IMG/VR virus record: IMGVR_UViG_2645727604_000006
Strand: one strand, 5' to 3'
DNA from: a virus
Lineage: Duplodnaviria; Heunggongvirae; Uroviricota; Caudoviricetes
Length of the DNA stretch: 46,540 bases
Under the pieces are notes generated by a model. The model did no database searches and had not been told where the DNA came from. It saw only the letters and a list, made by a program, of their open reading frames with translations. A program made the position numbers and the translations under genes. Shown here one piece after another: positions 12,198-31,507 of the stretch (its first letter is position 1; each line of letters starts with the position of its first letter).

Positions 12198-12548
12198 ATG
12201 GACCAGACGATTTCACCTGCAACCGGCGACTACGAACGCCGTCGGATTTATACCCTTCATAACGCGGTTTATCTGCGACTGGCGACGCCGCTTGGCAGTT
12301 ACTGGGCGGATGCGTCGCTGGGGTCACGCCTGCACGAGCTGAAGCGGGAAAAAGACGTTTCCCGTGTTCATAAGCTTGCGGCGCAGTATGCCAGCCAGGC
12401 ACTTCAGCCCCTGCTCGATGACGGGCGGGCAAAATCCATTACCGTTGACACAAAACCGGGGCAGCGCGGCTGGTTGTTGCTGTTAATCACCGTCACGGAT
12501 AACGCGGGCACACCGCAGACGTTTGAACACCCTGTGAGGATTATGTAA
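12198..12548 (+). CDS. baseplate protein (Mu gp46-like, P2 gpW-like)
   Basis: 116-aa ORF between the spike and J-like baseplate genes. Confidence 0.55.
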   Translation: MDQTISPATGDYERRRIYTLHNAVYLRLATPLGSYWADASLGSRLHELKREKDVSRVHKLAAQYASQALQPLLDDGRAKSITVDTKPGQRGWLLLLITVTDNAGTPQTFEHPVRIM

Positions 12549-13627: not shown

Positions 13628-13630
13628 TAC

Positions 13631-16032: not shown

Positions 16033-16034
16033 TT

Positions 16035-16433: not shown

Positions 16434-16460
16434 CTCCGGTTTTTATTCAGGGGGATGCTC

Positions 16461-16556
16461 ATGCTTATTGGCTATGTACGCGCATCAACAAATGACCAGG
16501 ACACCGATTTACAACGCAATGCGTTGAACTGTGCAGGATATGAGCTGATTTTTTGA
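16461..16556 (+). pseudogene. truncated Din-family serine DNA invertase (Gin/Pin/Cin-like); only the first 31 codons remain
   Basis: Encodes MLIGYVRASTNDQDTDLQRNALNCAGYELIF then TGA, which matches the conserved N-terminus of Gin/Pin/Cin invertases (MLIGYVRVSTNDQ...). Similarity stops near codon 31; downstream sequence is unrelated. Confidence 0.75.
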
Positions 16557-16592
16557 GGGTAAATCATCAGCATGAGACTAATAATTTAGCGT

Positions 16593-16652
16593 CCAATTCT
16601 GGGCTTTTTGGTTGCGCTCTCTCCGCCCAGAATTGTGCGCCAATTAGCCCAG
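16593..16652. promoter_or_regulatory. palindromic repeat cluster in the junction region; candidate operator or hairpin
   Basis: CCAATTCTGGGC (16593-16604) with an 11-bp perfect inverted partner GCCCAGAATTG (16625-16635), 20-bp spacer. A third partial copy CCAATTAGCCCAG at 16640-16652. Confidence 0.3.
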
Positions 16653-17253
16653 AAAAAAACGCGAAGTTACAAACCGTTTGTCGCAACAGCTGGTGGTCAG
16701 TGTCGCTGCACACCTGTTGTTACGGCATGAATGCAGATTACCAAATCACCTGGCTGTAAGTAACCACAGAGAACTTTACCTGACTGTGGGGGGCGAGTTG
16801 TGCAGGAACTTAACCGCTGGTTTCGTGACGGAAGAGGACTTTATGTTCATGTTATTCGTTGGGAGCCAGAAACACAGCGCGTTATCTATCTTCGCAAAGA
16901 CTACCCGCATGAGTGCTTTAGTCCTTTGTGGAAATTCAGGCGTGATTTTGTTGAGTGTGAAGGACCACCAGCATATTGATTCTGCAATTCCGGGACGTTA
17001 CACTGTTCAGGCACCTTATAAAGCGGGTGCCGGGATTGGCGTCCTGAAATTGTCAACGGCGATGTATGACGCGCCAGCGTCTTTTTTATCGTCCGCATTT
17101 GCTCACATCCAGATTATGGTGGGCTGGGCGGGGGCACCGAAAGGTGCGCCGGTCTCCGTTGACGCCGGTTACGCCAACCCCGTCCAGTTCACCACCAGTG
17201 AAATTGGCGTTTCCGGTGGTGGAAGTTTTTCACTGTCAACGGAGGCTGCCATC

Positions 17254-17811
17254 ATGGCTACGATCCAAGCCCTCACTCAACCTGAAATCACCATTGACAA
17301 CGGCCAGGCCGTTACCACTTCTTTGGCTGTTGCCAACTTCTTCTCCAAGCGTCACGACGATGTGCTGAAAAAGATCCGCACTCTGGATTGTTCCCCTGAG
17401 TTTTGTGCCCGCAATTTTGCGGAGACATCGATTTCGGTAAATCAACCGAACGGTGGTACACGCAAGCTCCCTTGCTATCAAATCACACGAGACGGTTTTG
17501 CGTTTCTTGCTATGGGTTTCACGGGTAAACGTGCTGCCCGGTTCAAAGAGGCATACATCAATGCCTTTAACCAGATGGAAAAACTGCTTTCAAAGCCATC
17601 CACGCTGAGCGATGCCGCAGATAACGCCAGCGTGCTTTACTCCCACCTGTCGGTAATCCACAAGGTCTGGCTGCAGCAGCTTTATCCTATGTTGGCAAAA
17701 GCTGAATCTCCGCTGGCTGTTAGCTTATATGATTATATTAATGATGCTTCGGCGCTGGCCTGCCTCATAAATTTGTCGCTGAACCCTTCAGAGGTAAGGG
17801 GGCGCAAATGA
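17254..17811 (+). CDS. Rha-family phage regulatory protein
   Basis: The N-terminus MATIQALTQPEITIDNGQAVTTSLAVANFFSKRHDDVLKKIR fits the Rha pattern. GGAGG at 17241-17245 lies 8 nt before the ATG. The frame is open much further upstream (track ORF from 16678), but that part does not look protein-like. Confidence 0.6.
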   Translation: MATIQALTQPEITIDNGQAVTTSLAVANFFSKRHDDVLKKIRTLDCSPEFCARNFAETSISVNQPNGGTRKLPCYQITRDGFAFLAMGFTGKRAARFKEAYINAFNQMEKLLSKPSTLSDAADNASVLYSHLSVIHKVWLQQLYPMLAKAESPLAVSLYDYINDASALACLINLSLNPSEVRGRK

Positions 17812-18032
17812 TCCGGAATATTTTCAAACGGTTTACCAATCAGACTTTCCGTTGTCCTCGTCCGGGTCAGTGGTACACCACACCTGCAGGGCATGTTCTA
17901 CGTGTTAGCCTGGTTGACCGTGAATGTCAGAAGGTGATTTGTGAACCGCTGGGCCGTAATTACCGCGTCAGTATGCCGCTTATAGCCTTTCGCTCCGGAA
18001 AAAACATGAAGCATCTCGGAGGTGCTGCATGA
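17808..18032 (+). CDS. hypothetical small phage protein
   Basis: 74-aa ORF translationally coupled to both neighbours (ATGA overlaps). Confidence 0.35.
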   Translation: MIRNIFKRFTNQTFRCPRPGQWYTTPAGHVLRVSLVDRECQKVICEPLGRNYRVSMPLIAFRSGKNMKHLGGAA

Positions 18033-18847
18033 GTATGGAGCTGATGGTTAAAGCGATGAAAATTCGAGTGGGTAATCCATTGCGAAAACTGGTTCTGATC
18101 AAGCTGGCTGATAATGCCAGCGATCAGGGGGAGTGCTGGCCCAGCTACCAGCATATTGCTGACCAGTGCGAGATTAGCAAACGTTCTGTGATGAATCATA
18201 TTGCGGCCCTTTGTGAGTCCGGGCTGGTAAAAAAAGTCACCCGGAAAGGTGAAAAAGGTAACTCAAGTAATATCTATCTCCTTCATCTGGATGGTGCAGG
18301 AGATTCACTAGGGGGTAGTGCAAATAATTCACTATCTGGCGCAGCAAATTCACCAGGTAGTGCAGGAGTTGCACCAGGGGGTAGTGCAGGAGATTCACCC
18401 AGAACCAGTCACTCTTTTGAACCAGTCAAAGAACCAGTCAATGAACCAATAGCTGTTGGTGCATCAGTTGATGAGTCTGTGCGAGTTCGTTCAAACCGAC
18501 CGGAATACTCTCCGGAGTTTGAGCAGGCATGGCTGGCATATCCCAAACGTGCTGGTGGCAATTCAAAATCTGCAGCCTTCAAAGCCTGGAAAGCCCGTTT
18601 GAATGAGGGGGTAAACCCCGAAACCATGCTGGAAGGTGTGAAACGCTACGCGGGCTGGGTATCTGCGATGGGTAACAGCGGCACACAATTTGTGAAACAG
18701 GCTGTCACGTTCTTTGGTCCGGATCGTCATTTCGAAGAATCCTGGGAAGTTCCTGCGGTATCTGCAGCCAGACGTGAGGACCCGTACTTCAAAGCCAGTT
18801 ACGACAACGTGGACTACAGCCAGATCCCGGCAGGATTCAGGGGGTGA
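18029..18847 (+). CDS. putative replication initiator / winged-helix DNA-binding protein with an internal repeat-encoded linker
   Basis: The N-terminus (LRKLVLIKLADNASDQGECWPSYQHIADQCEISKRSVMNHIAALCESGLVKK) looks like a wHTH. A low-complexity linker is encoded by DNA repeats. The C-terminal domain contains AWLAYPKR. The architecture is analogous to lambda O with ori iterons inside the gene. Confidence 0.45.
   Translation: MSMELMVKAMKIRVGNPLRKLVLIKLADNASDQGECWPSYQHIADQCEISKRSVMNHIAALCESGLVKKVTRKGEKGNSSNIYLLHLDGAGDSLGGSANNSLSGAANSPGSAGVAPGGSAGDSPRTSHSFEPVKEPVNEPIAVGASVDESVRVRSNRPEYSPEFEQAWLAYPKRAGGNSKSAAFKAWKARLNEGVNPETMLEGVKRYAGWVSAMGNSGTQFVKQAVTFFGPDRHFEESWEVPAVSAARREDPYFKASYDNVDYSQIPAGFRG
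18293..18440 (+). repeat. iteron-like direct repeats inside the initiator gene; candidate origin
   Basis: GGTGCAGGAGATTCAC at 18293-18308 and 18383-18398. GTAGTGCA three times. ATTCAC four times. GAACCAGTCA at 18402, 18419 and 18431. Confidence 0.4.
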
Positions 18848-18849
18848 TC

Positions 18850-19338
18850 ATGAGTCTTTTGAATGAAGTTCAGAAATACATTGAAGCCCATCCGGGGTGT
18901 ACTTCCGGAGACATTGCGGATGCTTTTGCAGGTTACTCACGGCAGCGCGTTCTGCAGTATGCAAGCAAGTTACGTCAGAGTGGGCGTGTGGCTCACCGTT
19001 GTGAAGGAGATACACGCAGACATTTCCCGCGCCTGACTGAGAGAGCGCAGGAGCTGGAACCACAACCAGTTCGTGAAACCAGACCTGTGCGCAATTTCTA
19101 TGTCGGCACTAACGACCCGCGGGTGATTTTGTGCCTGACCCGCCAGGCGGAAGAACTGGAGTCAAGGGGCTTATACCGTCGTGCTGCAACCGTGTGGATG
19201 GCGGCATTCCGTGAAAGCCACTCCCAGCCAGAACGAAACAATTTTCTGGCACGTCGTGAGCGGTGCTTACGGAAAAGCAGCAAGCGCGCTGCATCGGGTG
19301 AAGAGTGGTATCTGTCAGGGAATTACGTGGGGGCTTAA
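18850..19338 (+). CDS. PerC-like (Pch-like) transcriptional regulator with an N-terminal wHTH-like region
   Basis: The C-terminal motif ELESRGLYRRAATVWMAAF...RRERCLRK resembles the PerC family signature (ELESKGLWRRAA.RWL) as recalled. AGGGGG precedes the ATG at 18850. Confidence 0.45.
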   Translation: MSLLNEVQKYIEAHPGCTSGDIADAFAGYSRQRVLQYASKLRQSGRVAHRCEGDTRRHFPRLTERAQELEPQPVRETRPVRNFYVGTNDPRVILCLTRQAEELESRGLYRRAATVWMAAFRESHSQPERNNFLARRERCLRKSSKRAASGEEWYLSGNYVGA

Positions 19339-19991
19339 TGAGTAATAAATATTGCCGGGCGCTGGTGGAACTGCGGAACAAACCAGCCCATGAACTGAAG
19401 GAAGTGGGCGATCAGTGGCGCACGCCGGATAACATTTTCTGGGGAATTAACACCCTGTTTGGCCCGTTTGTCCTGGATCTGTTTACTGACGGTGATAACG
19501 CCAAATGTACCGCGTATTACACGGCGGAAGACAACGCGCTGGCGCATGACTGGTCAGAACGTCTTGCGGAGCTTAAAGGTGCTGCCTTTGGTAATCCCCC
19601 ATACAGCCGCGCCAGTCAGCATGAGGGGCAATACATCACCGGCATGCGTTACATCATGAAACATGCCAGTGCCATGCGTGATAAAGGCGGGCGCTATGTT
19701 TTCCTGATCAAAGCTGCCACCTGCGAAGTGTGGTGGCCGGAAGATGCAGATCATATTGCTTTTATTCGCGGGCGTATTGGTTTTGAACTGCCTGCCTGGT
19801 TTATCCCGAAAGATGAGAAGCAGGTGCCGACAGGCGCTTTCTTCGCTGGTGCTATTGCTGTTTTCGACAAGACCTGGAAGGGACCGGCAATCAGCTACAT
19901 CGGGCGCGATGAACTTGAGGCATGTGGTGAGGCGTTTCTGGCGCAGGTTCGCCAGCAGGCAGAAAAACTGGTCAGGGAGATGGCGGCATGA
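19338..19991 (+). CDS. phage N6-adenine DNA methyltransferase (phage Dam-like)
   Basis: Catalytic motif FGNPPY; about 218 aa; nin-region position. The ATG at 19338 overlaps the upstream TAA. Confidence 0.75.
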   Translation: MSNKYCRALVELRNKPAHELKEVGDQWRTPDNIFWGINTLFGPFVLDLFTDGDNAKCTAYYTAEDNALAHDWSERLAELKGAAFGNPPYSRASQHEGQYITGMRYIMKHASAMRDKGGRYVFLIKAATCEVWWPEDADHIAFIRGRIGFELPAWFIPKDEKQVPTGAFFAGAIAVFDKTWKGPAISYIGRDELEACGEAFLAQVRQQAEKLVREMAA

Positions 19992-20314
19992 CGACGTTAA
20001 CTCAATGCCAGCAGCAGGTGCTGGATATGCTGATTTCTTATCAGAAAGAACGTGGCTTCCCGCCAACCAATCAGGAGGTGGCAACCATGCTGGGATACCG
20101 TTCAGTGAATGCAGCGGTGGAGCATCTTCGCGCACTGGAGAAAAAAGGCGTCATCACGATAAAGCGTGGCGTGGCCCGGGGGATCACGCTTCATACCGCG
20201 GTGAAGGACGACGACAGCGAGGCGGTCGGGATTATCCGCTCACTGCTTGCCGGTGAGGAAAACGCAAGGCTGCGTGCAACCCACTGGTTACATGAGAGAG
20301 GCTTGAAAGCATGA
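19988..20314 (+). CDS. LexA-like DNA-binding domain protein lacking the S24 peptidase domain
   Basis: 108 aa. The N-terminus LTQCQQQVLDMLISYQKERGFPPTNQEVATMLGYRSVNAAVEHLRALEKKGVI resembles the LexA N-terminal wHTH. No Ser/Lys peptidase domain follows. Confidence 0.55.
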   Translation: MTTLTQCQQQVLDMLISYQKERGFPPTNQEVATMLGYRSVNAAVEHLRALEKKGVITIKRGVARGITLHTAVKDDDSEAVGIIRSLLAGEENARLRATHWLHERGLKA

Positions 20315-20700
20315 AGCTGATCCTGCCTTTTCCGCCCAGCGTGAACACGTACTGGCGACACCCCAACAAAGGGGCGTTTGCTGGTAAGAGCCTGATAAGC
20401 TCGGCGGGGCGAAAATTCCAGAGCGCGGCGTGCGCAGCAATAGTTGAGCAGTTACGTCGTCTGCCGAAACCAACGTCGGCACCTGCTTCAGTGGAGATCG
20501 TGTTGTTTCCTCCGGATAACCGGATCCGCGATCTGGACAACTATAACAAGGCGCTGTTTGACGCCCTGACCCATGCGGGTGTGTGGGAAGACGACAGTCA
20601 GGTGAAAAGAATGCTGGTGGAGTGGGGACCGGTTATCCCGAAAGGGAAGGTCGAGATCACTATCAGTAAGTACGAGAAAACGGCGGGTGCAGCCGCCTGA
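20311..20700 (+). CDS. rusA: Holliday junction resolvase RusA
   Basis: 129 aa with LPFPPSVNTYW and DLDNYNKALFDALTHAGVWEDDSQV, the classic RusA signature. Confidence 0.9.
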   Translation: MKLILPFPPSVNTYWRHPNKGAFAGKSLISSAGRKFQSAACAAIVEQLRRLPKPTSAPASVEIVLFPPDNRIRDLDNYNKALFDALTHAGVWEDDSQVKRMLVEWGPVIPKGKVEITISKYEKTAGAAA

Positions 20701-20719
20701 TCAAGAGGAGAAACGAAGT

Positions 20720-21529
20720 ATGAATAATCTGATGGTCATTGATGGTATTGAAGTTCGTCGTGATGCTTATGGGCGTTACAGCCTGAACGATCTGCATCGC
20801 GCAGCAGTAGCATCTGGTGCAAATGCCAGAACCAAGGAGCCGGGAAAGTTTCTTTCCAGCCAACAAACTGTTGAGCTTGTTCATGAATTGACCAACACCC
20901 AGAATTTGGGTGTTGACCCGGTGAGTGTGATTCATGGGGGAAATGAACGGGGAACGTATGTCTGCAAGGAACTGGTGTATGCCTATGCAATGTGGATCAG
21001 CCCGTCATTCCATCTGAAGGTGATCCGTACTTTCGATATGGTAACCAGCGCACCGGAAAAATTATCCGGACAGGCTGCTGACAAGATGCAGGCTGGCGTG
21101 ATCCTGCTGGACTTTATGCGCCGGGAGTTAAACCTGTCTAACTCTTCAGTGCTTGGTGCCTGTCAGAAACTCCAGGAGGCTGTTGGCTTACCGAATCTGG
21201 CACCGCGCTATGCCATTGATGCTCCTGCTGATGCACACGATGGCTCAAGTCGCCCGACACTGTCACTGAGTGCACTGCTGAAACAGTATGGTATACGCCT
21301 GACGGCTAATCAGGCATATCACCAGATGGTGAAACTGGGGATCGTCGAGCAGCGCGAACGATACAGCCGTACCGCGATTAACAACATCAAAAAATTCTGG
21401 TCGCTGACAGCGAAAGGCTGCATGTTCGGCAAGAACATCACCAGTCCCGCAAATCCGCGCGAGACGCAGCCGCATTTCTTCGAATCCCGATTCCCTGAGC
21501 TGTTAAAGCTGCTCGATACCGTTCATTGA
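20720..21529 (+). CDS. KilA-N domain protein (antirepressor-like)
   Basis: The KilA-N core GTYVCKELVYAYAMWISPSFHLKVI is present. GAGGAG lies upstream of the ATG at 20720. Confidence 0.7.
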   Translation: MNNLMVIDGIEVRRDAYGRYSLNDLHRAAVASGANARTKEPGKFLSSQQTVELVHELTNTQNLGVDPVSVIHGGNERGTYVCKELVYAYAMWISPSFHLKVIRTFDMVTSAPEKLSGQAADKMQAGVILLDFMRRELNLSNSSVLGACQKLQEAVGLPNLAPRYAIDAPADAHDGSSRPTLSLSALLKQYGIRLTANQAYHQMVKLGIVEQRERYSRTAINNIKKFWSLTAKGCMFGKNITSPANPRETQPHFFESRFPELLKLLDTVH

Positions 21530-21530
21530 G

Positions 21531-22526
21531 GTGACCGTGAGAGCACTACTGACCCCTGAAATTGCCCCGCGTATGGGGATCGTATTGTTCAGGCCAGGTT
21601 CAGAGCTGATGCCCCTGTTTATGCAGGGGCGTGTCCTGCTGGAGCCTGAGCCGGAGCGTTATTCATCTTTCGCCAGTGGTGCCGTTCCGGCGGCATCACA
21701 ACCGCTGGCGGATGATCCTGCCGTTCGGGCCGTATTCCGCAATGAGGCAGTGATCCGTCGTGCTGGTGGCGTGGAATGTCTTGAAAGCTGGTTACTTCGT
21801 GAAAAAGGCTGCCAGTGGCCTCATTCCGACTGGCACAGCGAGAACATGACCACAATGCGACACGCTCCGGGTGCAATCCGTCTGTGCTGGCACTGCGATA
21901 ACCAGCTGCGCGATCAGTTCACGGAACGGCTGGAATCAATGGCAACGGATAACTGTGCCCGCTGGGTGTTGTCTGTTGTGCGTCGGGATCTCGGTTTTGA
22001 TGACAGTCACGTTGTGACAATGCCGGAACTGTGCTGGTGGCTGATTCGTAATGATCTGGCGGATGCCTTACCGGAAAGTGCAGCCCGTAAGGCACTGAGA
22101 TTACCGAAGCCTGTTGTGCCGTCTGTTACCCGGGAAAGTGACCTTGTGCCTTCGGTTCCTGCCACCAGCATCATCCAGGATAAGGCGAAAAAGGTGCTGG
22201 CGCTGAAAGTGGATCCGGAGTCGCCGGAGTCTTTTATGTTACGCCCAAAACGTCGCCGCTGGGTTAATGAAAAGTACACGCGCTGGGTTAAGACACAGCC
22301 GTGTGCATGTTGTGGAAAGCCCGCTGATGATCCCCACCACCTGATAGGTCACGGTCAGGGTGGAATGGGAACAAAAGCGCATGACCTTTTTGTGTTGCCT
22401 TTGTGCAGAAAGCATCACGACGAGCTGCATGCGGATACCGTGGCATTTGAAGAGAAGTATGGCTCCCAGCTGGAGCTGATATTTCGTTTTATCGATCGTG
22501 CGCTGGCAATTGGCGTGCTGGCCTGA
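21531..22526 (+). CDS. DUF968-like nin-region protein with a C-terminal HNH/zinc-finger-like motif
   Basis: [21 protein letters not shown]...[10 protein letters not shown], i.e. Cys/His clusters typical of DUF968/HNH-like proteins in lambdoid nin regions. GTG start. Confidence 0.55.
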
Positions 22527-22543
22527 TTTTGTGGAGAAAGTTG

Positions 22544-22909
22544 ATGCGTGATATTCAAATGGTTCTTGAACGTTGGGGGGCATGGGTGGCAAATAATCAC
22601 GAGGATGTCACCTGGTCGTCTATTGCTGCAGGATTTAAAGGACTAATCCCTTCAAAAGTAAAATCCCGCCCGCAATGTTGTGACGATGACGCGATGATCA
22701 TTTGTGGATGCATGGCTCGCCTGAAAAAGAACAACAGCGATTTGCACGATTTATTAGTGGATTATTATGTAGGTGGTATGACTTTTATGGCGCTTGCCCG
22801 TAAACATGGGCGTTCTGATTGCTGGGTTGGGCGTTTATTGCAAAAGGCTGAAGGTGTAGTTGATGGCATGTTAATGATGTTAGAAATTGAGCTAGAGATG
22901 GATCGTTAG
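22544..22909 (+). CDS. late-gene antiterminator Q (phage 82/21-type Q family)
   Basis: [26 protein letters not shown]...[19 protein letters not shown]...CWVGRLL resembles the Q82-type family. GGAGAAAG precedes the ATG at 22544. Confidence 0.7.
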
Positions 22910-22951
22910 AAGACCTCTTATTGAGGGGGTAATTGAATCAGTTTAATGTGT

Positions 22952-22991
22952 GGGGAGTCGATTTATTCTCCCCATTTTATTTAATTTATTT
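22952..22991 (+). terminator. hairpin plus T-rich tract downstream of Q; candidate intrinsic terminator on the + strand
   Basis: GGGGAG (22952-22957) pairs with CTCCCC (22968-22973) around a 10-nt loop, followed by ATTTTATTTAATTTATTT. Confidence 0.35.
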
Positions 22992-23436
22992 AAGGTTTTA
23001 ATTCATCAAGACGTTGTTGGATAGTGTTTTTGCTTGCGTTGTCTGTTATAGACATTTGTTGTACTTGCCCCATTGCCATTTGAGTTTCCATCCACATATC
23101 GGCCCACACTTTTGTATCGTTATTAACTTGAGCGATAGTAAATCTGACTTTTGATACCGGGGTTGTTGAATAGGCATTGCCGATTAACATTTGTCCAAAA
23201 ACAGCAGAGCCGCCTTCCAGTTCTTTACCACATATAACACTGCTGTTATCCGCGTTGTAAATTATCAACCCTCTACTATTGCAGTAATTCACAAGGGCAT
23301 CTTTGACTTTATCTTTTGTCGTATTTTGATAAACCCCCTCAGGTTTTCCTGATTGAGTTTTCTTTATCAATGGTACGGAAGAAGTACAACCTGAAATGAT
23401 AGTTGCGCTAAGTAATAGTACAGTCATTTTATTCAT
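22990..23436 (-). CDS. lipoprotein of unknown function (reverse-oriented cargo gene)
   Basis: The N-terminus MNKMTVLLLSATIISGCTSS is a signal peptide with an LSGC-type lipobox. AT-rich compared with flanking phage genes. Opposite strand to the late operon. Confidence 0.6.
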   Translation of the reverse strand: MNKMTVLLLSATIISGCTSSVPLIKKTQSGKPEGVYQNTTKDKVKDALVNYCNSRGLIIYNADNSSVICGKELEGGSAVFGQMLIGNAYSTTPVSKVRFTIAQVNNDTKVWADMWMETQMAMGQVQQMSITDNASKNTIQQRLDELKP

Positions 23437-23491
23437 GTTTCTTATCCATTGTTAAGGGCATACCCACACAATTATTTTTATTGGAGATGAA

Positions 23492-23586
23492 TAATCAACC
23501 GTTTACAATCGTAAAAAATCAAATATGCTGTTAAGAGTGGTTACTTCGCCACACAACTTAAACCCGCCGCTGAGCGGTTTTTTTGT
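23492..23586 (+). promoter_or_regulatory. candidate sigma70 promoter (TTTACA-N16-TATGCT) followed by a short hairpin and T-run; possible PR'/tR'-like unit
   Basis: -35 TTTACA at 23492-23497 and -10 TATGCT at 23514-23519. Hairpin CCGC-TGA-GCGG at 23567-23577 followed by TTTTTTT. The stem is weak (4-5 bp). Confidence 0.25.
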
Positions 23587-23682
23587 ACCTGTAAACCTGG
23601 TGCAGTACAGTAAACACGCTGGTGGTCGTGAATACTGACTTTTTATCTTGCTGGCTTTTTAGACAAGAGTTATTGGTATGTC

Positions 23683-23910
23683 ATGTTAACCAGAAGGGAA
23701 AAAGACATGCTAAAACAGCAAGATATGACAGAAACCGCCGCCGCAGTCCTTCATTTCTTACCTGCTGACAAGTGGGTAACGCCACGCATGATGACGAGAA
23801 CTACCGGAGTAAGCGAAGCCCGGTGCCAGTTAATACTGACTCAGTTAGTTCTGGCGGGTCTGGCGAAGGATAACGGCGGGTACGGGAATAAATTCAGACG
23901 CTGCCAGTAA
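23683..23910 (+). CDS. small putative winged-helix DNA-binding protein
   Basis: 75 aa (alternative ATG at 23707). AVLHFLPADKWVTPRMMTRTTGVSEARCQLILTQLVLAGLA is compatible with a small wHTH regulator of the PapI/FaeA type. Directly upstream of the methyltransferase gene. Confidence 0.35.
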   Translation: MLTRREKDMLKQQDMTETAAAVLHFLPADKWVTPRMMTRTTGVSEARCQLILTQLVLAGLAKDNGGYGNKFRRCQ

Positions 23911-24060
23911 TGGCGGTTTCCTGCTGTGAAAATGGGCGGCTGGTGGGTGTTGGTAGCACCTGCCAGCCATTCGCTCATGCTTACTGGTCACAAGCGAACC
24001 ACGGCCCACTGCTTTAGCGCAAAAGCAGAGTGAGCCTACCAGAGTTACGCTTACTGATCC

Positions 24061-25113
24061 ATGAAAAATACTGTAAAAATAAACAGTGTTGATTTAATCA
24101 ACGCTGATTGCCTGCATTTTATTCAGTCCCTGCCTGATGATTCCATTGACCTGATTGTTACCGATCCGCCGTACTTCAAGGTGAAACCCAACGGCTGGGA
24201 CAATCAGTGGAAAGGGGACGAAGATTACCTTAAGTGGCTGGACCACTGTCTGGCCCAGTTCTGGCGGGTGTTAAAACCTGCCGGAAGCCTTTACCTGTTC
24301 TGTGGGCATCGCCTGGCATCTGATATTGAGATCATGATGCGTGAACGTTTCAACGTGCTTAACCATATCATCTGGGCGAAGCCGTCCGGACGTTGGAATG
24401 GGTGTAATAAAGAAAGTCTGCGTGCATATTTTCCAGCCACAGAGCGCGTTCTGTTTGCTGAACATTACCAGGGGCCATATCGCGGCAAAAGTGACGGCTA
24501 TGCGGCAAAAGAAAGGGAACTCAAACAGCACATAATGGCACCGCTGATTTCGTATTTCAGGGATGCTCGTGCCGAACTGGGTATAACGGCAAAACAAATT
24601 GCCGAAGCCACAGGTAAGAAAAATATGGTTTCCCACTGGTTTGGTGCCAGTCAGTGGCAGTTGCCGAATGAGGCTGACTATCGGAAGTTACAGGCACTGT
24701 TTTCCCGTATAGCGGCAGAGAAGTTTCAGGAACAACAACTGGAACAACCACACCACCAGCTGGTGGCATCTTATGATTCACTGAATCGCAAATATTCTGA
24801 ATTGCTGGATGAGTTTAAATCTCTCCGGCGCTATTTCTCCGTATCAGTCTCCGTGCCTTATACCGATGTCTGGATGCATAAACCCGTTCAGTTCTACCCG
24901 GGTAAACATCCGTGTGAGAAACCTGCGGATATGCTCCGGCAAATAATCAATGCCAGTAGTCGACCTGGTGATCTGGTTGCTGATTTTTTTATGGGATCCG
25001 GTTCCACAATAAAAGCAGCAATGGCGCTGGGGCGTCGGGCCTTAGGTGTTGAGCTTGAGTCAGAGCGGTTTAACCAGACAGTGAAAGAGATAAACGAGCT
25101 GGTGGGGAAATAA
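24061..25113 (+). CDS. beta-class DNA N6-adenine (or N4-cytosine) methyltransferase, orphan
   Basis: Catalytic motif IV LIVTDPPYF near the N-terminus and SAM-binding motif I FFMGSGST near the C-terminus, the beta-class order. No adjacent endonuclease-like ORF. Confidence 0.8.
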   Translation: MKNTVKINSVDLINADCLHFIQSLPDDSIDLIVTDPPYFKVKPNGWDNQWKGDEDYLKWLDHCLAQFWRVLKPAGSLYLFCGHRLASDIEIMMRERFNVLNHIIWAKPSGRWNGCNKESLRAYFPATERVLFAEHYQGPYRGKSDGYAAKERELKQHIMAPLISYFRDARAELGITAKQIAEATGKKNMVSHWFGASQWQLPNEADYRKLQALFSRIAAEKFQEQQLEQPHHQLVASYDSLNRKYSELLDEFKSLRRYFSVSVSVPYTDVWMHKPVQFYPGKHPCEKPADMLRQIINASSRPGDLVADFFMGSGSTIKAAMALGRRALGVELESERFNQTVKEINELVGK

Positions 25114-25116
25114 TCT

Positions 25117-25144
25117 GGTGGCCACGTAGGTGGCCTTTTTATTT
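25117..25144 (+). terminator. intrinsic terminator after the methyltransferase gene
   Basis: GGCCAC-GTAG-GTGGCC perfect 6-bp stem (25120-25135) followed by TTTTTATTT. Confidence 0.5.
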
Positions 25145-25179
25145 CCATTACACAGCACCCGCATCTGCGAGGTGGGGTT

Positions 25180-25395
25180 ATGAAATCCATGGATAAGTTA
25201 ACAACGGGTGTCGCCTATGGCACCTCAGCAGGTAGTGCCGGGTACTGGTTTTTACAGTTGCTCGATAAAGTCACGCCCTCACAGTGGGCGGCAATAGGTG
25301 TGCTGGGTAGTCTGGTATTTGGCTTGCTGACGTATCTGACAAACCTTTATTTCAAGATTAAAGAAGATAAGCGTAAGGCTGCGAGAGGTGAATAA
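25180..25395 (+). CDS. S: class II holin, S21-type pinholin with dual start
   Basis: [71 protein letters not shown] is near-identical in pattern to phage 21 S. Met1 and Met4 give the antiholin/holin dual start. Confidence 0.85.
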
Positions 25396-25892
25396 TGTCG
25401 CCATCATTACGCAAGGCTGTTGCTGCTGCTATTGGTGGTGGGGCTGTTGCCATAGCGTCTGTGCTCATCACTGGTCCGAGTGGTGACGATGGCCTGGAAG
25501 GTGTCAGCTACATACCATACAAAGATATCGTTGGCGTATGGACTGTATGCCACGGACACACCGGAAAAGACATCATGCTAGGTAAAACGTATACCGAAGC
25601 AGAATGCAAAGCCCTCCTGAATAAAGACCTTGCCACGGTCGCCAGACAAATTAACCCGTACATCAAAGTCGATATACCGGAAACAACGCGCGGCGCTCTT
25701 TACTCGTTCGTCTACAACGTGGGTGCTGGCAATTTCAGAACATCGACGCTTCTTCGCAAAATAAACCAGGGCGATATCAAAGGCGCATGTGACCAGCTAC
25801 GTCGCTGGACATACGCTGGCGGTAAGCAATGGAAAGGCCTGATGACTCGTCGTGAGATTGAGCGTGAAGTCTGTTTGTGGGGGCAACAATGA
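25395..25892 (+). CDS. R: SAR endolysin (phage 21 R-like lysozyme with an N-terminal signal-anchor-release domain)
   Basis: N-terminal Gly/Ala-rich SAR domain [18 protein letters not shown], then a lysozyme domain with the catalytic region; very similar to R21 as recalled. Confidence 0.85.
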
Positions 25893-26356
25893 GCAGAGTA
25901 ACCGCGATTATCTCCGCTCTGGTTATCTGCATCATCGTCTGCCTGTCGTGGGCGGTCAATCATTACCGTGATAACGCCATCGCCTACAAAGAACAGCGTG
26001 ATAAAAAAGTCAGTGAGCTGAAGCAGGCGACCGCCACCATCGCTGACATGCAGCAGCGTCAGCGTGATGTTGCTGCGATCGATGCAAAATACACGAAGGA
26101 GTTAGCCGATGCGAAAACTGAAAATGAAACTCTGCGCGCTGATGTTGCCGCTGGTCGTAAGCGCCTGCGGGTCAATGCCAGTTGCTCCGCAGCCGTGCGT
26201 GAAGCCACCGGACCCACCAGCATGGATAATGCAACCAGCCCCCGACTGGCAGACACCGCTGAACGGGATTATTTCACCCTCAGAGAACGGTTGATGACGA
26301 TGCAGAAGCAACTGGAAGGGGCGCAGGAATATATCCGCACCCAGCGCATTAAGTAG
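25889..26356 (+). CDS. Rz: i-spanin Rz
   Basis: N-terminal transmembrane segment ([18 protein letters not shown]) then a coiled-coil periplasmic domain. The ATG at 25889 overlaps the endolysin stop. Confidence 0.8.
26109..26294 (+). CDS. Rz1: o-spanin Rz1, embedded in the +1 frame of Rz
   Basis: [16 protein letters not shown] lipobox followed by a proline-rich mature region, entirely inside Rz. Confidence 0.75.
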
Positions 26357-26377
26357 CTGGAGAAAAAACACGAATCT

Positions 26378-26740
26378 GTGGTTTTTACTGAGCGCGGTGT
26401 ACACGGTGGAACATATGGCGGGAAGTTTGTTGCTTATGATTATGCAGCATGGCTAAACCCCGGATTTAAATATGCAGCCTATAAAGTCCTGGATGACTAC
26501 TTCACCGGAGAACTTCAGCATCGCAACAGCTTAAGTGCGCAGCTCAATATGAAGTGTCATGAGTTTGATCAGAAAAAAGATATGGTGAGCTTCTGTGGAC
26601 AAGGGCTGGCGGCATGGCGCTATACGAAGCCAGTGTTGGTCGCTGAGATTAACTCCCTGGCTAACCAGCTGCAGATAACGATCCCCGGGCTGTCCGGTAT
26701 TTGCCGGTATGAAATTACCGGAAGGCGCGGTCGTTACTGA
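26378..26740 (+). CDS. KilA-N domain C-terminal fragment protein (possibly 5'-truncated remnant)
   Basis: ERGVHGGTYGGKFVAYDYAAWLNPGFKYAAYKVL matches the conserved end of the KilA-N domain (compare the gene at 20720), but the N-terminal half of the domain is missing. GTG start. Confidence 0.4.
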   Translation: MVFTERGVHGGTYGGKFVAYDYAAWLNPGFKYAAYKVLDDYFTGELQHRNSLSAQLNMKCHEFDQKKDMVSFCGQGLAAWRYTKPVLVAEINSLANQLQITIPGLSGICRYEITGRRGRY

Positions 26741-26959
26741 GTAAGAGCAGGCATTACAGCAGCCCTTCACTGAGGGGCTGCGATAATGTGAGGAATAAAA
26801 AACCGGCAGGGGAAATCCATTGAAGATTTGCCGGTGGCAAAAGATGGCCATGCTTTTAACCTTAGTAGCAGAGCTACGGAGTTCAACAACGACCGTCGCC
26901 GTTATCTTGCTGAAAGGCGTTTCAATGATTTTCATCAATTTATTCATCAGCAATGGTGA

Positions 26960-27060
26960 TAATCACTCTCATTTTGGCGGGTCCTTCCGGTGGGGTGGCC
27001 TGCCACGGGGCGGGAGCGTTGCGGAAAAAGGCTAGTTTTTGAAATTTCATCCGTCATCAC
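26960..27060. other. candidate cos region (cohesive-end site plus terminase binding region) upstream of the terminase small subunit gene
   Basis: GC-rich block GGCGGGTCCTTCCGGTGGGGTGGCCTGCCACGGGGCGGGAGCG followed by AT-rich, T-tract DNA, in the canonical position between the lysis genes and the terminase. No exact match to the lambda cosN 12-mer. Confidence 0.3.
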
Positions 27061-27193
27061 CACTACTGTAATGTATTGATATTACGGTGATTTTATTTTT
27101 ATGGTGTCGATTTTGATTGTTTTTTGTTCACCACTAACACCGTTTGCCTAAAGTTGTTCGCAAGATGCATGTTTAAAACATTCTGGAGCGGGT

Positions 27194-27688
27194 ATGGATC
27201 GAGAGTTAAAAAATCTGACGCTGAATATCAGTCAACTGGCGGCACTGTCAGGTGTACATCGCCAGACTGCTGCGGCAAGGCTGCAAAATCTACCCGTTGC
27301 AGGGGGGCATGAAAGCAACCTCAAGCTTTATCGGGTGGTTGATATTGTGTCGGCATTTCTGGCATTACCACCGCCGGTTGCAGAAGGCGAAATGGACGCG
27401 CATGAGCGCAAAGCCTGGTATCAGTCTGAACGTGAGCGTCTTAAGTTCGAACAGGAAACGGCACAACTCATTCCGGCCAGTGATGTCAGACGGGAGTTTG
27501 CCATCTGGGCAAAAGCGGTCGTGCAGGTGCTGGAGACATTACCGGATATTCTTGAACGTGACTGCGGTCTGCAGCCTGCCGCTGTGAGCCGTGTTCAGTC
27601 CATTATTGATGATCTGCGCGATCAGATAGCCCTGCGGGTGACTGAAGCAGGTGCGGATGATGAGGAGGAATTACAGCAGGAGGAGTAA
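27194..27688 (+). CDS. terminase small subunit (Nu1-like)
   Basis: N-terminal HTH-like LNISQLAALSGVHRQTAAARLQ, acidic C-terminus, immediately upstream of the large terminase gene. Confidence 0.6.
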   Translation: MDRELKNLTLNISQLAALSGVHRQTAAARLQNLPVAGGHESNLKLYRVVDIVSAFLALPPPVAEGEMDAHERKAWYQSERERLKFEQETAQLIPASDVRREFAIWAKAVVQVLETLPDILERDCGLQPAAVSRVQSIIDDLRDQIALRVTEAGADDEEELQQEE

Positions 27689-29790
27689 TGCTGAATCAGG
27701 AAACCGCAAAGGCAGCACGAACCGATTCAGGTTATATCCTTCGCGCACCGAGACGAATGCGGGTTGCTGATGCCGTTGCTCAGTATATGCGGGTGCCCAT
27801 GGGGGCCGGGAACTCAGTCCCGTGGGATCCGCTGGTGGCACCGTATGTTATTGAGCCGATGAACTGCCTGGCCTCGCGTGAATACGACGCAGTGATATTT
27901 GTTGGCCCGGCACGAACCGGCAAGACTATCGGCCTGATTGACGGCTGGGTGATTTACAACGTGATTTGCGATCCTGCTGATATGCTGATCATTCAGATGA
28001 CGGAGGAAAAAGCCCGCGAACACTCCAAAAAACGACTCGCCAGAACGTTTCGCGTCAGCCCGGAAGTGGTCAGTCGCCTGAGTCCGAACAAAAATGACAA
28101 CAACGTTTATGACAGAACATTCCTTGCTGGCAACTACCTGAAAATCGGCTGGCCGTCAGTCAATATCATGTCCTCATCAGATTATAAATGCGTCGCGCTG
28201 ACGGATTATGACCGTTTTCCGGAAGATATTGATGGCGAGGGGGATGCCTTCTCTCTTGCCTCAAAACGTACCACCACATTTATGTCCAGCGGTATGACGT
28301 TGGTGGAGAGTTCCCCCGGCAGGGATGTGAAGGATGTGAAATGGCGACGGACTTCACCGCATGAGGCTCCACCAACCACGGGGATCCTGTCGCTCTATAA
28401 CCGTGGTGATCGCCGTCGCTGGTACTGGCCCTGTCCACACTGTGGTGAGTATTTTCAGCCCTGCGGCGATGTGGTTGCTGGTTTCCGTGATATTGCCGAT
28501 CCCGTGCTGGCAAGTGAGGCGGCTTATATTCAGTGTCCTTCCTGTTCAGGACGGATTATGCCTGAACACAAACGTGAGCTGAACGGACGTGGGGTCTGGT
28601 TGCGGGATGGTGAATCCATCAATGCGGATGGCAGTCGTTATGGTGATCCCCGACGCTCACGTATTGCGTCATTCTGGATGGAGGGTCCGGCAGCTGCTTA
28701 CCAGACACTCTCGCAACTCGTTTACAAACTGCTTACTGCAGAACAGGAATACGAGACAACCGGAAGTGAAGAAACACTCAAGACGGTTATCAATACCGAC
28801 TGGGGATTACCTTATCTTCCCCGCGCCAGCATGGAGCAACGAAAAAGTGAACTGCTTGAGCAGCGGGCAGAGCCAGTTCCTTCCCGCAGTGTGCCGGATG
28901 GCGTTAATTTCCTTGTGGCGACAGTGGATGTGCAGGCGGGACGTCATCGCCGTTTTGTGGTTCAGGTAACGGGCTATGGCAGCCGTGGCGAACGCTGGAT
29001 TATTGATCGTTACAACATCACGCAGTCATTGCGCGGTGACAGCGACGGGGAGAGCCAGCGAATTGATCCGGCCAGCTATCCGGAAGACTGGGATGTCCTG
29101 CTGACGGATGTTTTTCATAAAAGCTGGCCGCTGGCCTCCGATCCTTCTCAACAAATGCGACTGATGGCAATGGCGGTGGACTCCGGCGGTGAAGACGGGG
29201 TCACTGATAATGCCTATAAATTCTGGCGTCGTTGCCGTCGTGATGGCCTTGGTAAACGTATTTACCTGTTTAAGGGCGACAGCATCCGGCGCGCAAAACT
29301 GATCACCCGTACATTCCCTGATAACACCGGACGAACGGGCCGACGGGCGCAGGCCGCAGGTGATGTGCCGCTCTGGCTTCTTCAGACGGATGCACTGAAA
29401 GACCGGGTGAATAACGCGTTATGGCGTGACTCGCCAGGTCCCGGCTATGTGCATTTCCCTGACTGGCTGGGGAGCTGGTTTTACGACGAACTGACGTATG
29501 AAGAGCGGAGCAGTGACGGGAAATGGAGTAAGCCGGGTCGCGGTGCCAACGAAGCTTTTGACCTGATGGTGTATGCCGAGGCTCTGGTCATTCTGCATGG
29601 ATACGAAAAGATCCGCTGGCCGGATGCACCGGAGTGGGCGAGCCGGGAAACCTGGCTGGAGTGTGTCCAGGACAGTACCGAACCGTCATCCTCACCGGAA
29701 CCGGTATCCACGCCTGTTAAAAAACAAAAACGGAAGAAAACAGTAACTGACGATGTTAACCCCTGGCTGACTTCCGGAGGATGGTTATGA
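27688..29790 (+). CDS. terminase large subunit (lambda gpA family)
   Basis: 700 aa; Walker A-like VGPARTGKT; zinc-finger-like CPHCGEYF...CPSC; position between Nu1-like and W-like genes. Confidence 0.85.
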   Translation: MLNQETAKAARTDSGYILRAPRRMRVADAVAQYMRVPMGAGNSVPWDPLVAPYVIEPMNCLASREYDAVIFVGPARTGKTIGLIDGWVIYNVICDPADMLIIQMTEEKAREHSKKRLARTFRVSPEVVSRLSPNKNDNNVYDRTFLAGNYLKIGWPSVNIMSSSDYKCVALTDYDRFPEDIDGEGDAFSLASKRTTTFMSSGMTLVESSPGRDVKDVKWRRTSPHEAPPTTGILSLYNRGDRRRWYWPCPHCGEYFQPCGDVVAGFRDIADPVLASEAAYIQCPSCSGRIMPEHKRELNGRGVWLRDGESINADGSRYGDPRRSRIASFWMEGPAAAYQTLSQLVYKLLTAEQEYETTGSEETLKTVINTDWGLPYLPRASMEQRKSELLEQRAEPVPSRSVPDGVNFLVATVDVQAGRHRRFVVQVTGYGSRGERWIIDRYNITQSLRGDSDGESQRIDPASYPEDWDVLLTDVFHKSWPLASDPSQQMRLMAMAVDSGGEDGVTDNAYKFWRRCRRDGLGKRIYLFKGDSIRRAKLITRTFPDNTGRTGRRAQAAGDVPLWLLQTDALKDRVNNALWRDSPGPGYVHFPDWLGSWFYDELTYEERSSDGKWSKPGRGANEAFDLMVYAEALVILHGYEKIRWPDAPEWASRETWLECVQDSTEPSSSPEPVSTPVKKQKRKKTVTDDVNPWLTSGGWL

Positions 29791-29999
29791 ACCAGAATGA
29801 TATCGAAGCCATGATTCAGCGTTATATGGAAGCTGAAATGGCGGTGCTGGACGGAAAATCCGTCACCTTTAATGGTCAGCAGATGACCATGGAAAACTTA
29901 TCTGAGATCCGGCAGGGACGGCAGGAGTGGGAGCGCCGCCTTGCGGCTCTGATTACACGACGACGGGGGCATCCCGGGTACCGGCTGGCGAGGTTCTGA
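29787..29999 (+). CDS. head-tail joining protein (lambda gpW-like)
   Basis: About 70 aa ending RRRGHPGYRLARF, between terminase and portal as in lambda. GGAGG lies 6 nt before the ATG at 29787. Confidence 0.6.
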   Translation: MNQNDIEAMIQRYMEAEMAVLDGKSVTFNGQQMTMENLSEIRQGRQEWERRLAALITRRRGHPGYRLARF

Positions 30000-31507
30000 T
30001 GGCAATTCTTGATGATGTGATTGGCGTTTTTTCACCTGGATGGAAAGCGGCAAGGCTGCGTTCCCGTGCGGTGATCCAGGCTTATGAAGCCGTAAAAACG
30101 ACGCGGACACACAAAGCCCGACGGGAGAACCGAACTGCCGACCAGCTAAGCCAGTACGGGGCCGTGTCGTTACGTGAGCAGGCCCGTTACCTTGATAACA
30201 ACCACGATCTGGTTATTGGTGTATTTGACAAGCTGGAAGAACGGGTGGTGGGGAAAAACGGGATTATTGTCGAGCCACATCCGGTATTACGCAATGGGGC
30301 CATTGCCCGTGATCTGGCAGCGGAGATTCGCACCCGATGGAGTGAATGGTCTGTCAGCCCGGAAGTCACCGGGCAGTTTACCCGTCCGATGCTGGAACGT
30401 CTGATGCTGCGTACCTGGCTGCGCGATGGTGAGGTGTTTGCCCAGATGGTTTCCGGGCGCATAAACAGCCTGACGCCTTCTGCCGGTGTTCATTTCTGGC
30501 TGGAGGCGCTCGAGCCAGACTTTATTCCCATGACCAGTGATGAGAGCAACAGGCTGAATCAGGGCGTGTTTGTTGATGACTGGGGGCGTCCCGAAAAATA
30601 TCTGGTGTATAAAAGCCGTCCCGTATCCGGACGGCAGATGGAAACCAAAGAAGTGGATGCAGAGCGAATGCTGCATCTTAAATTTGTTCGCCGTCTGCAC
30701 CAGATGCGCGGGACGTCTTTGTTGTCCGGTGTGCTGATCCGCCTCAGTGCCCTGAAAGATTATGAAGATTATGAGCTGACTGCAGCAAGGATCGCCGCTG
30801 CTCTGGGGATGTACATCCGCAAAGGCGACGGGCAGAGCTATGAACCGGATGGTAATGGCAGCAAGGATAAGGAACGCGAGCTTACCATTCAGCCAGGCAT
30901 TATTTACGACGATCTGAAACCCGGCGAAGAAATCGGAATGGTGAAGTCGGATCGCCCCAATCCTAACCTTGAAACTTTTCGTAATGGTCAGTTGCGTGCC
31001 GTGGCGGCGGGCAGTCGTCTGAGTTTTTCCAGTACAGCGCGCAACTATAACGGCACTTACAGCGCCCAGCGTCAGGAGCTGGTTGAATCTACTGATGGCT
31101 ACCTGATCCTGCAGGACTGGTTTATTGGTGCCGTCACCCGCCCGATGTATCGTGCCTGGCTGAAACAGGCTGTGGCATCCGGTGTTATCAGGCTACCCCG
31201 CGATCTTGACCGTTCTTCACTGTATACCGCGGTGTATTCCGGACCAGTGATGCCGTGGATTGACCCTGTTAAGGAGGCTGAGGCCTGGAAAATCCAGATT
31301 CGTGGTGGAGCGGCGACAGAATCAGACTGGGTACGTGCTGGTGGTCGTAATCCGGATGATGTCAAACGTCGGCGCAAGGCCGAAATTGATGAAAACCGCA
31401 AGCTGGATCTGGTATTTGATACCGATCCGGCCAGTGATAAAGGAGGCAGTAGTGCCGCAACGAAACGACAGGAGCCGCAGCACACCGACGACCAGTCCGA
31501 AGATTAA
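29999..31507 (+). CDS. portal protein (lambda gpB family)
   Basis: 502 aa from the ATG overlapping the W stop; lambda-type portal position and size. Confidence 0.8.
   Translation: MAILDDVIGVFSPGWKAARLRSRAVIQAYEAVKTTRTHKARRENRTADQLSQYGAVSLREQARYLDNNHDLVIGVFDKLEERVVGKNGIIVEPHPVLRNGAIARDLAAEIRTRWSEWSVSPEVTGQFTRPMLERLMLRTWLRDGEVFAQMVSGRINSLTPSAGVHFWLEALEPDFIPMTSDESNRLNQGVFVDDWGRPEKYLVYKSRPVSGRQMETKEVDAERMLHLKFVRRLHQMRGTSLLSGVLIRLSALKDYEDYELTAARIAAALGMYIRKGDGQSYEPDGNGSKDKERELTIQPGIIYDDLKPGEEIGMVKSDRPNPNLETFRNGQLRAVAAGSRLSFSSTARNYNGTYSAQRQELVESTDGYLILQDWFIGAVTRPMYRAWLKQAVASGVIRLPRDLDRSSLYTAVYSGPVMPWIDPVKEAEAWKIQIRGGAATESDWVRAGGRNPDDVKRRRKAEIDENRKLDLVFDTDPASDKGGSSAATKRQEPQHTDDQSED

Follow-up and report, generated by a model that had tools for sequence, protein, structure and literature searches.

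In a 46,540-nt virus record from IMG/VR (IMGVR_UViG_2645727604_000006, hereafter the window), we examined the interval from 22910 to 25179, which lies between the antiterminator gene Q and the lysis genes of a lambdoid prophage and holds three open reading frames (ORFs) encoding a minus-strand lipoprotein, a small winged-helix protein, and an adenine methyltransferase. The interval probably comprises two independent units. Unit 1 (23502–25143) would form the head of the late operon, in which a homologue of the late promoter pR′ with its Q-utilization (qut) segment is followed by one or two terminator-like hairpins, the winged-helix gene, a structured spacer, and a methylase gene of the M.EcoGII family; unit 2 (~22910–23500) would be an AT-rich lipoprotein moron inserted between Q and pR′, clipping the tail of Q and shifting the promoter. 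A sequence-only reading of this DNA had located all three ORFs correctly, the start of the small one apart, and had rightly judged the region accessory relative to lambda. It had also treated the three genes as one cargo island and an uncharacterised accessory system, and neither view held: the lipoprotein gene lies upstream of the pR′ homologue and the other two genes downstream of it in a widespread block, and the most prominent gene of the supposed system encodes, judging by homology, a methylase whose activity is already known. The same reading had allowed that all three might instead be conserved genes with known functions, which applies in part: the methylase gene is conserved and, by homology, of known activity.

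The methylase gene (24061–25113, + strand) encodes a 350-aa beta-class N6-adenine DNA methyltransferase that scored 145.9 bits (E = 2e-42) on PF01555 (N6_N4_Mtase), the gathering cut-off being 26.7. Alignment with M.EcoGII showed the beta-class motif order, with the catalytic DPPY at the N terminus (residues 34–37), a domain for target recognition (TRD) in the centre, and FFMGSGS (S-adenosylmethionine-binding FxGxG; residues 309–315) at the C terminus, in agreement with the orphan beta-class DPPY adenine methyltransferase proposed earlier. Identity to M.EcoGII was 81% over 349 aligned residues (full length, TRD included), with many of the ~19% of residues that differ located in the central target-recognition region; the M.EcoGII sequence came from Supplementary Table S1 of PMC11551740, the reference sequences having been machine-read from a PDF, so that a few residues may be wrong. 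Identity to the reconstructed ancestor Anc291 reached 89%, and PADLOC scored the enzyme as MTase_II (E = 3e-152). M.EcoGII methylates adenine in any context and blocks a broad range of restriction enzymes in vitro (PMC5778455); Anc291 was likewise assayed and found active on DNA without a sequence motif, and Anc291–Anc284 and M.EcoGII are all non-site-specific. Because it is 89% identical to an active and motif-less ancestor, the window methylase can be placed within an experimentally bracketed non-specific clade, and this particular allele would be expected to methylate adenine in any context. What had been called part of an uncharacterised system is thus 81% identical to a biochemically characterised enzyme.

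M.EcoGII and M.EcoGI (Murray et al. 2018, PMC5778455) resemble the window enzyme in length (349 aa versus 350 aa), in being prophage-borne, and in having no endonuclease partner. They reside on prophage(s) of E. coli O104:H4 C227-11, where they are silent in the native lysogen and harmful if constitutively expressed (PMC5778455; PMC12707154), and the family is documented as an orphan without a recognition sequence (PMC5778455). Our Pfam scans, which ended at ~27.7 kb of the window, covered the larger ORFs of 1–20.3 kb, the interval itself, and 26.4–27.7 kb; no restriction endonuclease was found among the scanned ORFs, in the PhiR40_1 annotation of the colinear late region, or in annotated relatives; the sequence-only reading had likewise seen none. 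The anti-restriction role that it had raised is the accepted working hypothesis for the M.EcoGII family (PMC5778455, PMC12707154), while the methylation-dependent regulation of the Dam/PapI type that it had also raised is unlikely for an enzyme without sequence specificity. Immediately 5′ of the methylase ATG, a GATC (Dam site; TGATCCATG, window 24054–24063) was present in 11 of 12 diverse phages. In 933W-type Shiga toxin (Stx) phages, a 71-nt remnant of the methylase 3′ end was detected (phage 06-3462, 1008–1078, versus window 25012–25082), annotated there as a 153-bp "DNA methylase," which suggests that the methylase module was lost in the 933W-type Stx lineage; a comparative paper on pR′ (PMC6266700) makes no mention of the methylase.

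We found that the methylase gene is regularly preceded by the winged-helix gene. Among 80 IMG/VR loci with an identical winged helix, the methylase stood at a fixed offset in 76 of the 77 with enough downstream sequence, and in the exception it was truncated by an insertion. More distant alleles (~51% identical) in Kosakonia, Salmonella, and E. coli were each followed by ~150 nt and then by a 350–353-aa PF01555 enzyme, and these pairs lay downstream of at least four Q families and upstream of three lysis cassette types. The same order of small ORF and methylase also occurred in Citrobacter, Klebsiella, Hafnia, and Morganella phages, as well as in 1720a-02, phiP27, and Stx2a_WGPS2; 1720a-02, a relative named in PMC5778455, has the same layout of small ORF, spacer, and methylase as the window. 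Overall, the pairing is kept across phages of at least eight enterobacterial genera at ~40–50% protein identity with constant spacing. At ≥80% coverage, the block 23561–25179 was present in at least 1,117 of 5,426 complete E. coli genomes (~21%), with up to eight copies per genome. Specifically, SfV (orf47-orf48), cdtI (orf55-orf56), mEp460 (mEp460_052-053), and PhiR40_1 share the block of terminator leader, small ORF, methylase, and lysis genes at 91–99% nt identity, with the small ORF and the cargo annotated as hypothetical in all four records. PhiR40_1 is colinear with the window through Q and the lipoprotein (98.6%), whereas the Q of SfV and mEp460 is an unrelated protein of 250 aa, the winged-helix allele of SfV is of the other type (51% identical), and cdtI and mEp460 hold other cargo where the window has the lipoprotein. 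One IMG/VR contig (L047, 1747–2184) carries a methylase truncated after ~120 residues, followed by other cargo and a NanS-p-like esterase, an arrangement that is an Stx-phage-like late region.

The winged-helix gene itself (23707–23910, + strand) encodes a stand-alone protein of 67 aa belonging to PHROG 331, a conserved upstream partner of the methylase. Every homologue opens with MLKQQDMTET, so that the true start is at 23707 and not at 23683, from which a 75-aa product had been read. The winged-helix fold proposed for it was borne out by an AlphaFold2 model (predicted local distance difference test [pLDDT] score of 87) with three helices followed by a beta-hairpin (order H-H-H-beta-beta). 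Foldseek matches were generic, with E-values all near 1e-2: a Zalpha domain ranked highest (template modeling [TM] score of 0.81), followed by IclR N-domains and TrmBL2, with a winged helix of the type by which SelB binds the selenocysteine insertion sequence (SECIS) also among the matches. The suggested likeness to PapI/FaeA was not supported, as PefI appeared only at rank 39 (TM score of 0.61) and the PapI/FaeA family model matched none of 25 family members at E = 0.01 or at E up to 5. Against Pfam TrmB, the window protein scored 12.6 bits versus a cut-off of 25.6 (E = 0.12); 21 of the 25 members matched TrmB, all below threshold (best E = 2.5e-4), members also matched MarR_2 and DprA_WH below threshold, and some homologues are named "TrmB family regulator" by NCBI. 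PADLOC and NCBIfam gave no match for the protein, a profile search of the family against PDB sequences returned chance-level matches only, and a search for an operator-like palindrome yielded many short repeats, none of them compelling.

Within the family, the N terminus and helix 3 (RCQLILTQ) are invariant, while helices 1 and 2 fall into two allele classes that are ~51% identical. Both classes (that of SfV L004 and L096–L099 and that of the window) occur with methylases 98–100% identical to the window enzyme, and some sequences resemble recombinants between them. The invariant leader at 23636–23653 is complementary to 23694–23725, where the winged-helix gene has its ribosome-binding site and first codons (arms complementary at 79% and 100%); this complementarity may explain the invariance of both the leader and the MLKQQDM codons.

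The position of the pair points to late expression. Upstream lies an antiterminator gene of the H-19B/933W/DLP12 Q type (22544–22909, + strand; PF06530, E = 2e-51), whose ORF opens at 22529 and whose relatives are annotated from the ATG at 22544. Its product is 80% identical over 122 aa to the 157-aa Q of VT1-Sakai, stops 23 residues earlier, and is a distant match to the Q21 structure 6jnx. The segment 23501–23589 is ~80–85% identical to the VT1-Sakai segment annotated as late promoter, qut, and pR′ transcript terminator. Specifically, a promoter scan found the pR′ homologue (TTTACA-16-TATGCT; 23502–23529, + strand), each base of which aligns with the VT1-Sakai "putative late promoter"; it is followed by the segment homologous to the "putative Q-utilization" sequence (23543–23550, + strand; annotation transferred by homology) and by a hairpin with a T7 run and a weak stem (23562–23584, + strand; −6.3 kcal/mol), for which the SfV and VT1-Sakai records give a putative tR′ terminator. 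The initial transcribed sequence TAAGAGTGGTTAC is the same in the window and VT1-Sakai. A second hairpin with a T5 run (23608–23644, + strand; −9.2 kcal/mol) lies in the near-invariant leader and may also act as a terminator.

Phages with a QuuD/H-19B-type Q have this promoter-proximal sequence in common, and 23502–23529 forms their mosaic boundary. In SfV and mEp460, with their unrelated Q, homology to the window starts only at the hairpin (23561), which is the pattern expected if Q and its recognition site co-vary; from the hairpin to the winged-helix ATG, all six sequences compared were near-invariant. A promoter scan gave no convincing internal promoter within the pair unit. Because of the pR′/qut/terminator homology, the 80% identity of Q, and the homology break at the hairpin with other Q types, we infer that the pair constitutes the first cistron set of a Q-dependent late operon, a placement that fits the reported silence of M.EcoGI and M.EcoGII in lysogens. 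The promoter, initial transcribed region, and first hairpin share their ~80–85% identity with the H-19B/933W/VT1-Sakai group as a whole; in Stx phages, however, pR′ overlaps the end of Q and the transcript stops 258 nt on at a second terminator, giving StxS (PMC7547250), whereas in the window the lipoprotein gene parts Q from pR′ and the StxS-S segment and second terminator, both of which were sought, are absent. What follows the late control region differs as well: tRNAs and stx in Stx phages, and the winged helix and methylase in the window.

Between the two genes lies a conserved 150-nt spacer (23911–24060, + strand) with three predicted hairpins: H1 (23938–23949/23957–23968), H2 (23970–23975/23993–23998), and H3 (24003–24015/24022–24036). 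Across genera, the spacer retains 72–87% nt identity, compared with a protein identity of ~81% in the case of the Kosakonia and Salmonella methylases, and it contains no obvious Shine-Dalgarno (SD) sequence upstream of the methylase ATG. Folded as a single sequence, it was better than shuffled controls (z = −2.67). In the hand-drawn structure, 85% of cells were paired versus 31–48% with partners slid; seven pairs showed changes on both sides, a number matched by 2 of 500 shuffles (slid controls, three pairs at most), the covariation score was 0.142 versus 0.080, and one pair was seen as CG, AU, and UA. RNAalifold predicted that the region −5 to −1 before the methylase ATG pairs with an upstream loop, and Rfam gave no match at E up to 1 over 22400–25500, spacer included. 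Covariation thus gives the three hairpins moderate backing. The 5′ arm of H1 contains a Chi site (23939–23946), so part of the spacer conservation may act at the DNA level.

The lipoprotein gene (22990–23436, − strand) has a different character. It encodes a 148-aa member of an orphan family (PHROG 3152, "unknown function") with the lipobox LLSATIISG-C (I-S-G-C), in which Cys17 was invariant among 20 homologues (LPAM_1 match in 8 of 20), and GC content falls to 0.36–0.40 over 22750–23650 versus 0.50–0.58 in the flanks on either side; the AT-rich minus-strand moron seen in the sequence-only reading is therefore upheld by the invariant lipobox Cys and the GC dip. At +2 the protein has Thr and not Asp, so that outer-membrane sorting is expected under the Lol rule. 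A candidate sigma-70 promoter (TTGATT-16-AATAAT; 23471–23498, − strand; 9 of 12 consensus matches) stands back to back with pR′, and a hairpin with a T-rich tail just past Q (22950–22985, + strand; −13.0 kcal/mol, z = −3.5) is a candidate terminator that may insulate the gene from early rightward transcription. Of the features expected of a moron, distinct GC content and variable presence were thus observed, and the promoter and terminator are consensus matches only. Searches of Pfam, NCBIfam, and PADLOC assigned the protein to no family, a relaxed per-member Pfam scan of its family found the lipid-attachment motif only, a profile search against PDB sequences gave chance-level matches, and comparison of its fold with viral structures (BFVD) returned nothing above a TM score of 0.45. 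The gene resembles lambda bor and cor/llp as a small prophage lipoprotein moron, probably of the outer membrane, and shares with bor a late-region location on the opposite strand, but its product matches Bor and Cor/Llp neither in sequence nor in family.

Its distribution is also its own. The lipoprotein gene was present in 185 of 5,426 complete E. coli genomes (3.4%), and at >95% identity it and this Q allele always co-occur; a prophage with this exact Q allele minus the lipoprotein was sought and none was found. The isolated phages PhiR40_1 and PhiR55_1 have the same arrangement of short Q and lipoprotein. Compared with H-19B-type phages, in which pR′ overlaps the end of Q, the insertion coincides with a Q shorter by 23 residues and a pR′ displaced by ~590 bp. 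Homologues with 57–72% identity occupy a position between gpK and gpI/J in tail modules of Salmonella and Jejubacter prophages and also occur at an Enterobacter locus that bears P1-type Dar genes (DarA_N, ddrB-ParB) and that we read as a P1-like element. Among loci whose winged helix and methylase are identical to those of the window, Q and pR′ lay from ~250 bp to >3 kb apart, with other AT-rich cargo in between: PDC-M53 (PDC-M53A/B), PDC-S42, a 5-methylcytosine methylase with an OLD/Gabija-like ATPase (HEC-04), DUF6731 with a membrane protein, two-gene membrane cassettes of unknown function (also in cdtI), and another, unrelated lipoprotein (as in mEp460) (loci L013, L019, L020, L021, L036, L057, L064, and L075). 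The Q-to-pR′ gap is therefore a hypervariable, AT-rich cargo slot of E. coli prophages with candidate defence cassettes, and the presence of such cassettes in other loci hints at a defence or exclusion role for the lipoprotein. We regard the lipoprotein as separate from the pair because of its distribution (185 versus at least 1,117 genomes), the cargo swaps, the homologues in tail modules and a presumed P1-like element, and the GC dip.

Together, these observations suggest how the two units might work. In the lysogen, the methylase would not be made; after induction, Q-modified RNA polymerase would read into the pair shortly before lysis and packaging, and the enzyme would modify adenines of the replicating phage DNA without sequence preference, such that progeny genomes would arrive in new hosts pre-protected against many restriction systems of types I, II, and III that are adenine-sensitive. 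The winged helix would be a dedicated partner of the enzyme, most likely controlling production of this toxic protein through leader RNA or DNA and less likely acting as a general regulator. The lipoprotein, probably in the outer membrane, would be expressed from its own promoter in the lysogen, with a role most likely at the envelope: superinfection exclusion, defence, or a Bor-like contribution to host fitness.

Several points weigh against this interpretation. Heavy N6-methyladenine (m6A) modification would open the phage DNA to methyladenine-dependent type IV enzymes. The SUPREM authors call the biological function of M.EcoGII unknown. In Stx phages, the 258-nt pR′ RNA extends past the counterpart of the first hairpin and ends at the second terminator (Sy et al., PMC7547250); the efficiency of the terminator at 23562–23584 is hence uncertain, and silence in the lysogen may instead rest on the second hairpin, Rho, or translational control. 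For the spacer, covariation was scored on 12 related sequences with a structure drawn from the window sequence itself; RNAalifold's own covariation term was weak, and only the hand-drawn structure beat the controls. The lipoprotein fold gave generic matches (KA1/Flpp3/BamC-like), and the protein resembles no known exclusion or defence family, Cor, Llp, and Bor/Iss included. Nor does it track one J receptor-binding domain: the J C termini of four lipoprotein-carrying phages shared 49% identity or only short, weak matches (~28–36% over 70–95 residues), and a model in which the lipoprotein blocks the receptor of its own phage is thus not supported. Finally, one O157 prophage (NE1092-2) has the winged helix without the methylase, so that coupling of the pair is strong but not absolute and the role of the winged helix may not be specific to the methylase. 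An "HTH domain" gene that follows the winged helix in O157 was considered as a methylase remnant and rejected, as tblastn showed no similarity.

Very improbable, and already largely refuted by the distribution data, is a single uncharacterised accessory system of all three genes, in which for example a lipoprotein acting as sensor or effector would work jointly with a regulator and a methylase in defence or epigenetic regulation. The adjacency of the genes between Q and S and their absence from the lambda core would fit, but the lipoprotein gene stands on the opposite strand outside the late transcription unit, and its GC content differs. It is found six-fold less widely than the pair, unrelated cargo takes its place in phages that keep the pair, and its homologues sit in tail modules and a P1-type Dar locus with no methylase called nearby. 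Even less credible is that the methylase is half of a restriction-modification system with its endonuclease elsewhere: PADLOC does score it as a Type II MTase, but neither the scanned ORFs nor the annotated relatives hold an endonuclease and the family is a documented orphan. An unlikely, though better founded, alternative is that the methylase serves the phage cycle or host epigenetics, by marking DNA for packaging or replication, by countering methylation-sensitive defences such as BREX or DISARM, or by methylating RNA. M.EcoGII also acts on RNA and DNA:RNA hybrids (PMC5778455), Dmt of P1 and Dam methylation at pac offer a precedent (PMC12707154), and the phage has a further, Dam-family enzyme at 19305–19991. 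Non-specific methylation, however, carries no positional information, the block of restriction enzymes in vitro is broad, and 933W-type Stx phages, which lost the gene and retain a remnant only, stay viable, which argues that the methylase is dispensable for the cycle.

For the winged helix, two further explanations compete with the role proposed above. One, which we consider a real if minority possibility, is a Com-like post-transcriptional activator or repressor that, by binding the structured spacer RNA, makes the SD-less start site of the methylase accessible or blocks it. The conserved order and ~150-nt spacing across genera, a spacer conserved beyond expectation whose hand-drawn hairpins beat both controls, the pairing of positions −5 to −1 predicted by RNAalifold, and the occurrence of RNA-binding winged helices among the structural matches (SelB-SECIS and Zalpha-Z-RNA) all speak for it, and it would explain the gating of a toxic enzyme. 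The precedent is established in phage Mu, where com, a small gene directly 5′ of mom, precedes the gene of a toxic late DNA-modification enzyme, not expressed in lysogens, whose anti-restriction effect is broad (PMC12707154), with a structured mRNA segment ahead of the enzyme start; in the window, the corresponding regulatory link would be hypothetical. There is no homology between the systems: Com is a zinc-finger RNA binder whose gene overlaps mom and Mom makes acetamido/carbamoyl-adenine, whereas the small protein of the window is a winged helix and its enzyme an S-adenosylmethionine-dependent methyltransferase. On the other side, the invariant helix 3 is as expected of a DNA-recognition helix, M.EcoGII cloned alone was active (PMC5778455), the 5′ arm of H1 coincides with Chi, and the O157 prophage keeps the winged helix alone. 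The second explanation, an ordinary late-region DNA-binding factor (a TrmB/MarR-style regulator or a DNA-end or replication factor) linked to the methylase only by a recombination-rich leader, appears less probable again. It would accommodate the sub-threshold TrmB, MarR_2, and DprA_WH matches and the NCBI names, the winged helix without a methylase in NE1092-2 or before a truncated one in L047, and the Chi sites on either side of the gene. Linkage alone is nevertheless hard to credit, because the pairing and its constant spacing persist at ~40–50% protein identity in eight or more genera, with four or more Q families and three lysis types. A broader reading, which we hold to be less likely than not, is that a toxic non-specific adenine methylase is gated by a dedicated device consisting of the 67-aa winged helix and the conserved 150-nt leader, structured and SD-less, as a functional Com/mom analogue assembled from unrelated parts; more speculatively, the winged helix might read or shield m6A DNA, like DpnI-type winged helices.

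The neighbouring genes mark a lambdoid late-control region, with RusA, KilA-N, and DUF968/HNH ahead of Q, and an S21-type holin, lysozyme, and Rz after the interval. The holin gene (25180–25395, + strand; PF04971, E = 2e-35) is the first lysis gene and the downstream boundary of the interval. Between it and the methylase lies an intrinsic-terminator-like hairpin with a T-run (25120–25143, + strand; −12.3 kcal/mol, z = −2.55), which agrees with the terminator that the sequence-only reading had assigned to the methylase and corresponds to a hairpin annotated as a putative terminator in the SfV record. A tRNA scan of the window found none.

Elsewhere, the first ~16.4 kb of the window (1–16433) hold a Mu-like prophage head and tail module (protease I, gpT, sheath, tape measure, and baseplate), which includes an inverted pair of tail-fibre and assembly genes and directly adjoins a lambdoid Ash/Rha ORF (junction near 16434–16678); no lambdoid integrase or repressor side is visible within the window. 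The second orphan methyltransferase at 19305–19991 belongs to the phage Dam family (PF05869) and lies in a nin-like region, giving the prophage two adenine methylases. Chi (GCTGGTGG) occurs in 16 copies versus 2.3 expected, spanning 16689–31337, all in the lambdoid part and 12 on the + strand; two copies, at 23618–23625 (within the second leader hairpin) and 23939–23946, lie in non-coding DNA on either side of the winged-helix gene. Lambdoid phages rich in Chi have been described (PMC12315714).

The M.EcoGII family serves as a commercial and research reagent, while the literature still treats its role in nature and its regulation as unknown. Placing the window methylase at the probable head of a Q-dependent late operon, behind the same winged-helix gene and a structured leader, provides a testable model for the use and restraint of a genome-wide methylase by lambdoid phages. 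The partner protein with its structured leader may be a new, if modest, observation that brings with it a Com/mom-like hypothesis, and seeing the Q-to-pR′ gap as a hotspot for cargo may also be new; this slot is a useful place to seek new defence or exclusion genes, the orphan lipoprotein included. If the hypothesis is true, a Com/mom-like gate would occur in roughly one in five E. coli genomes.

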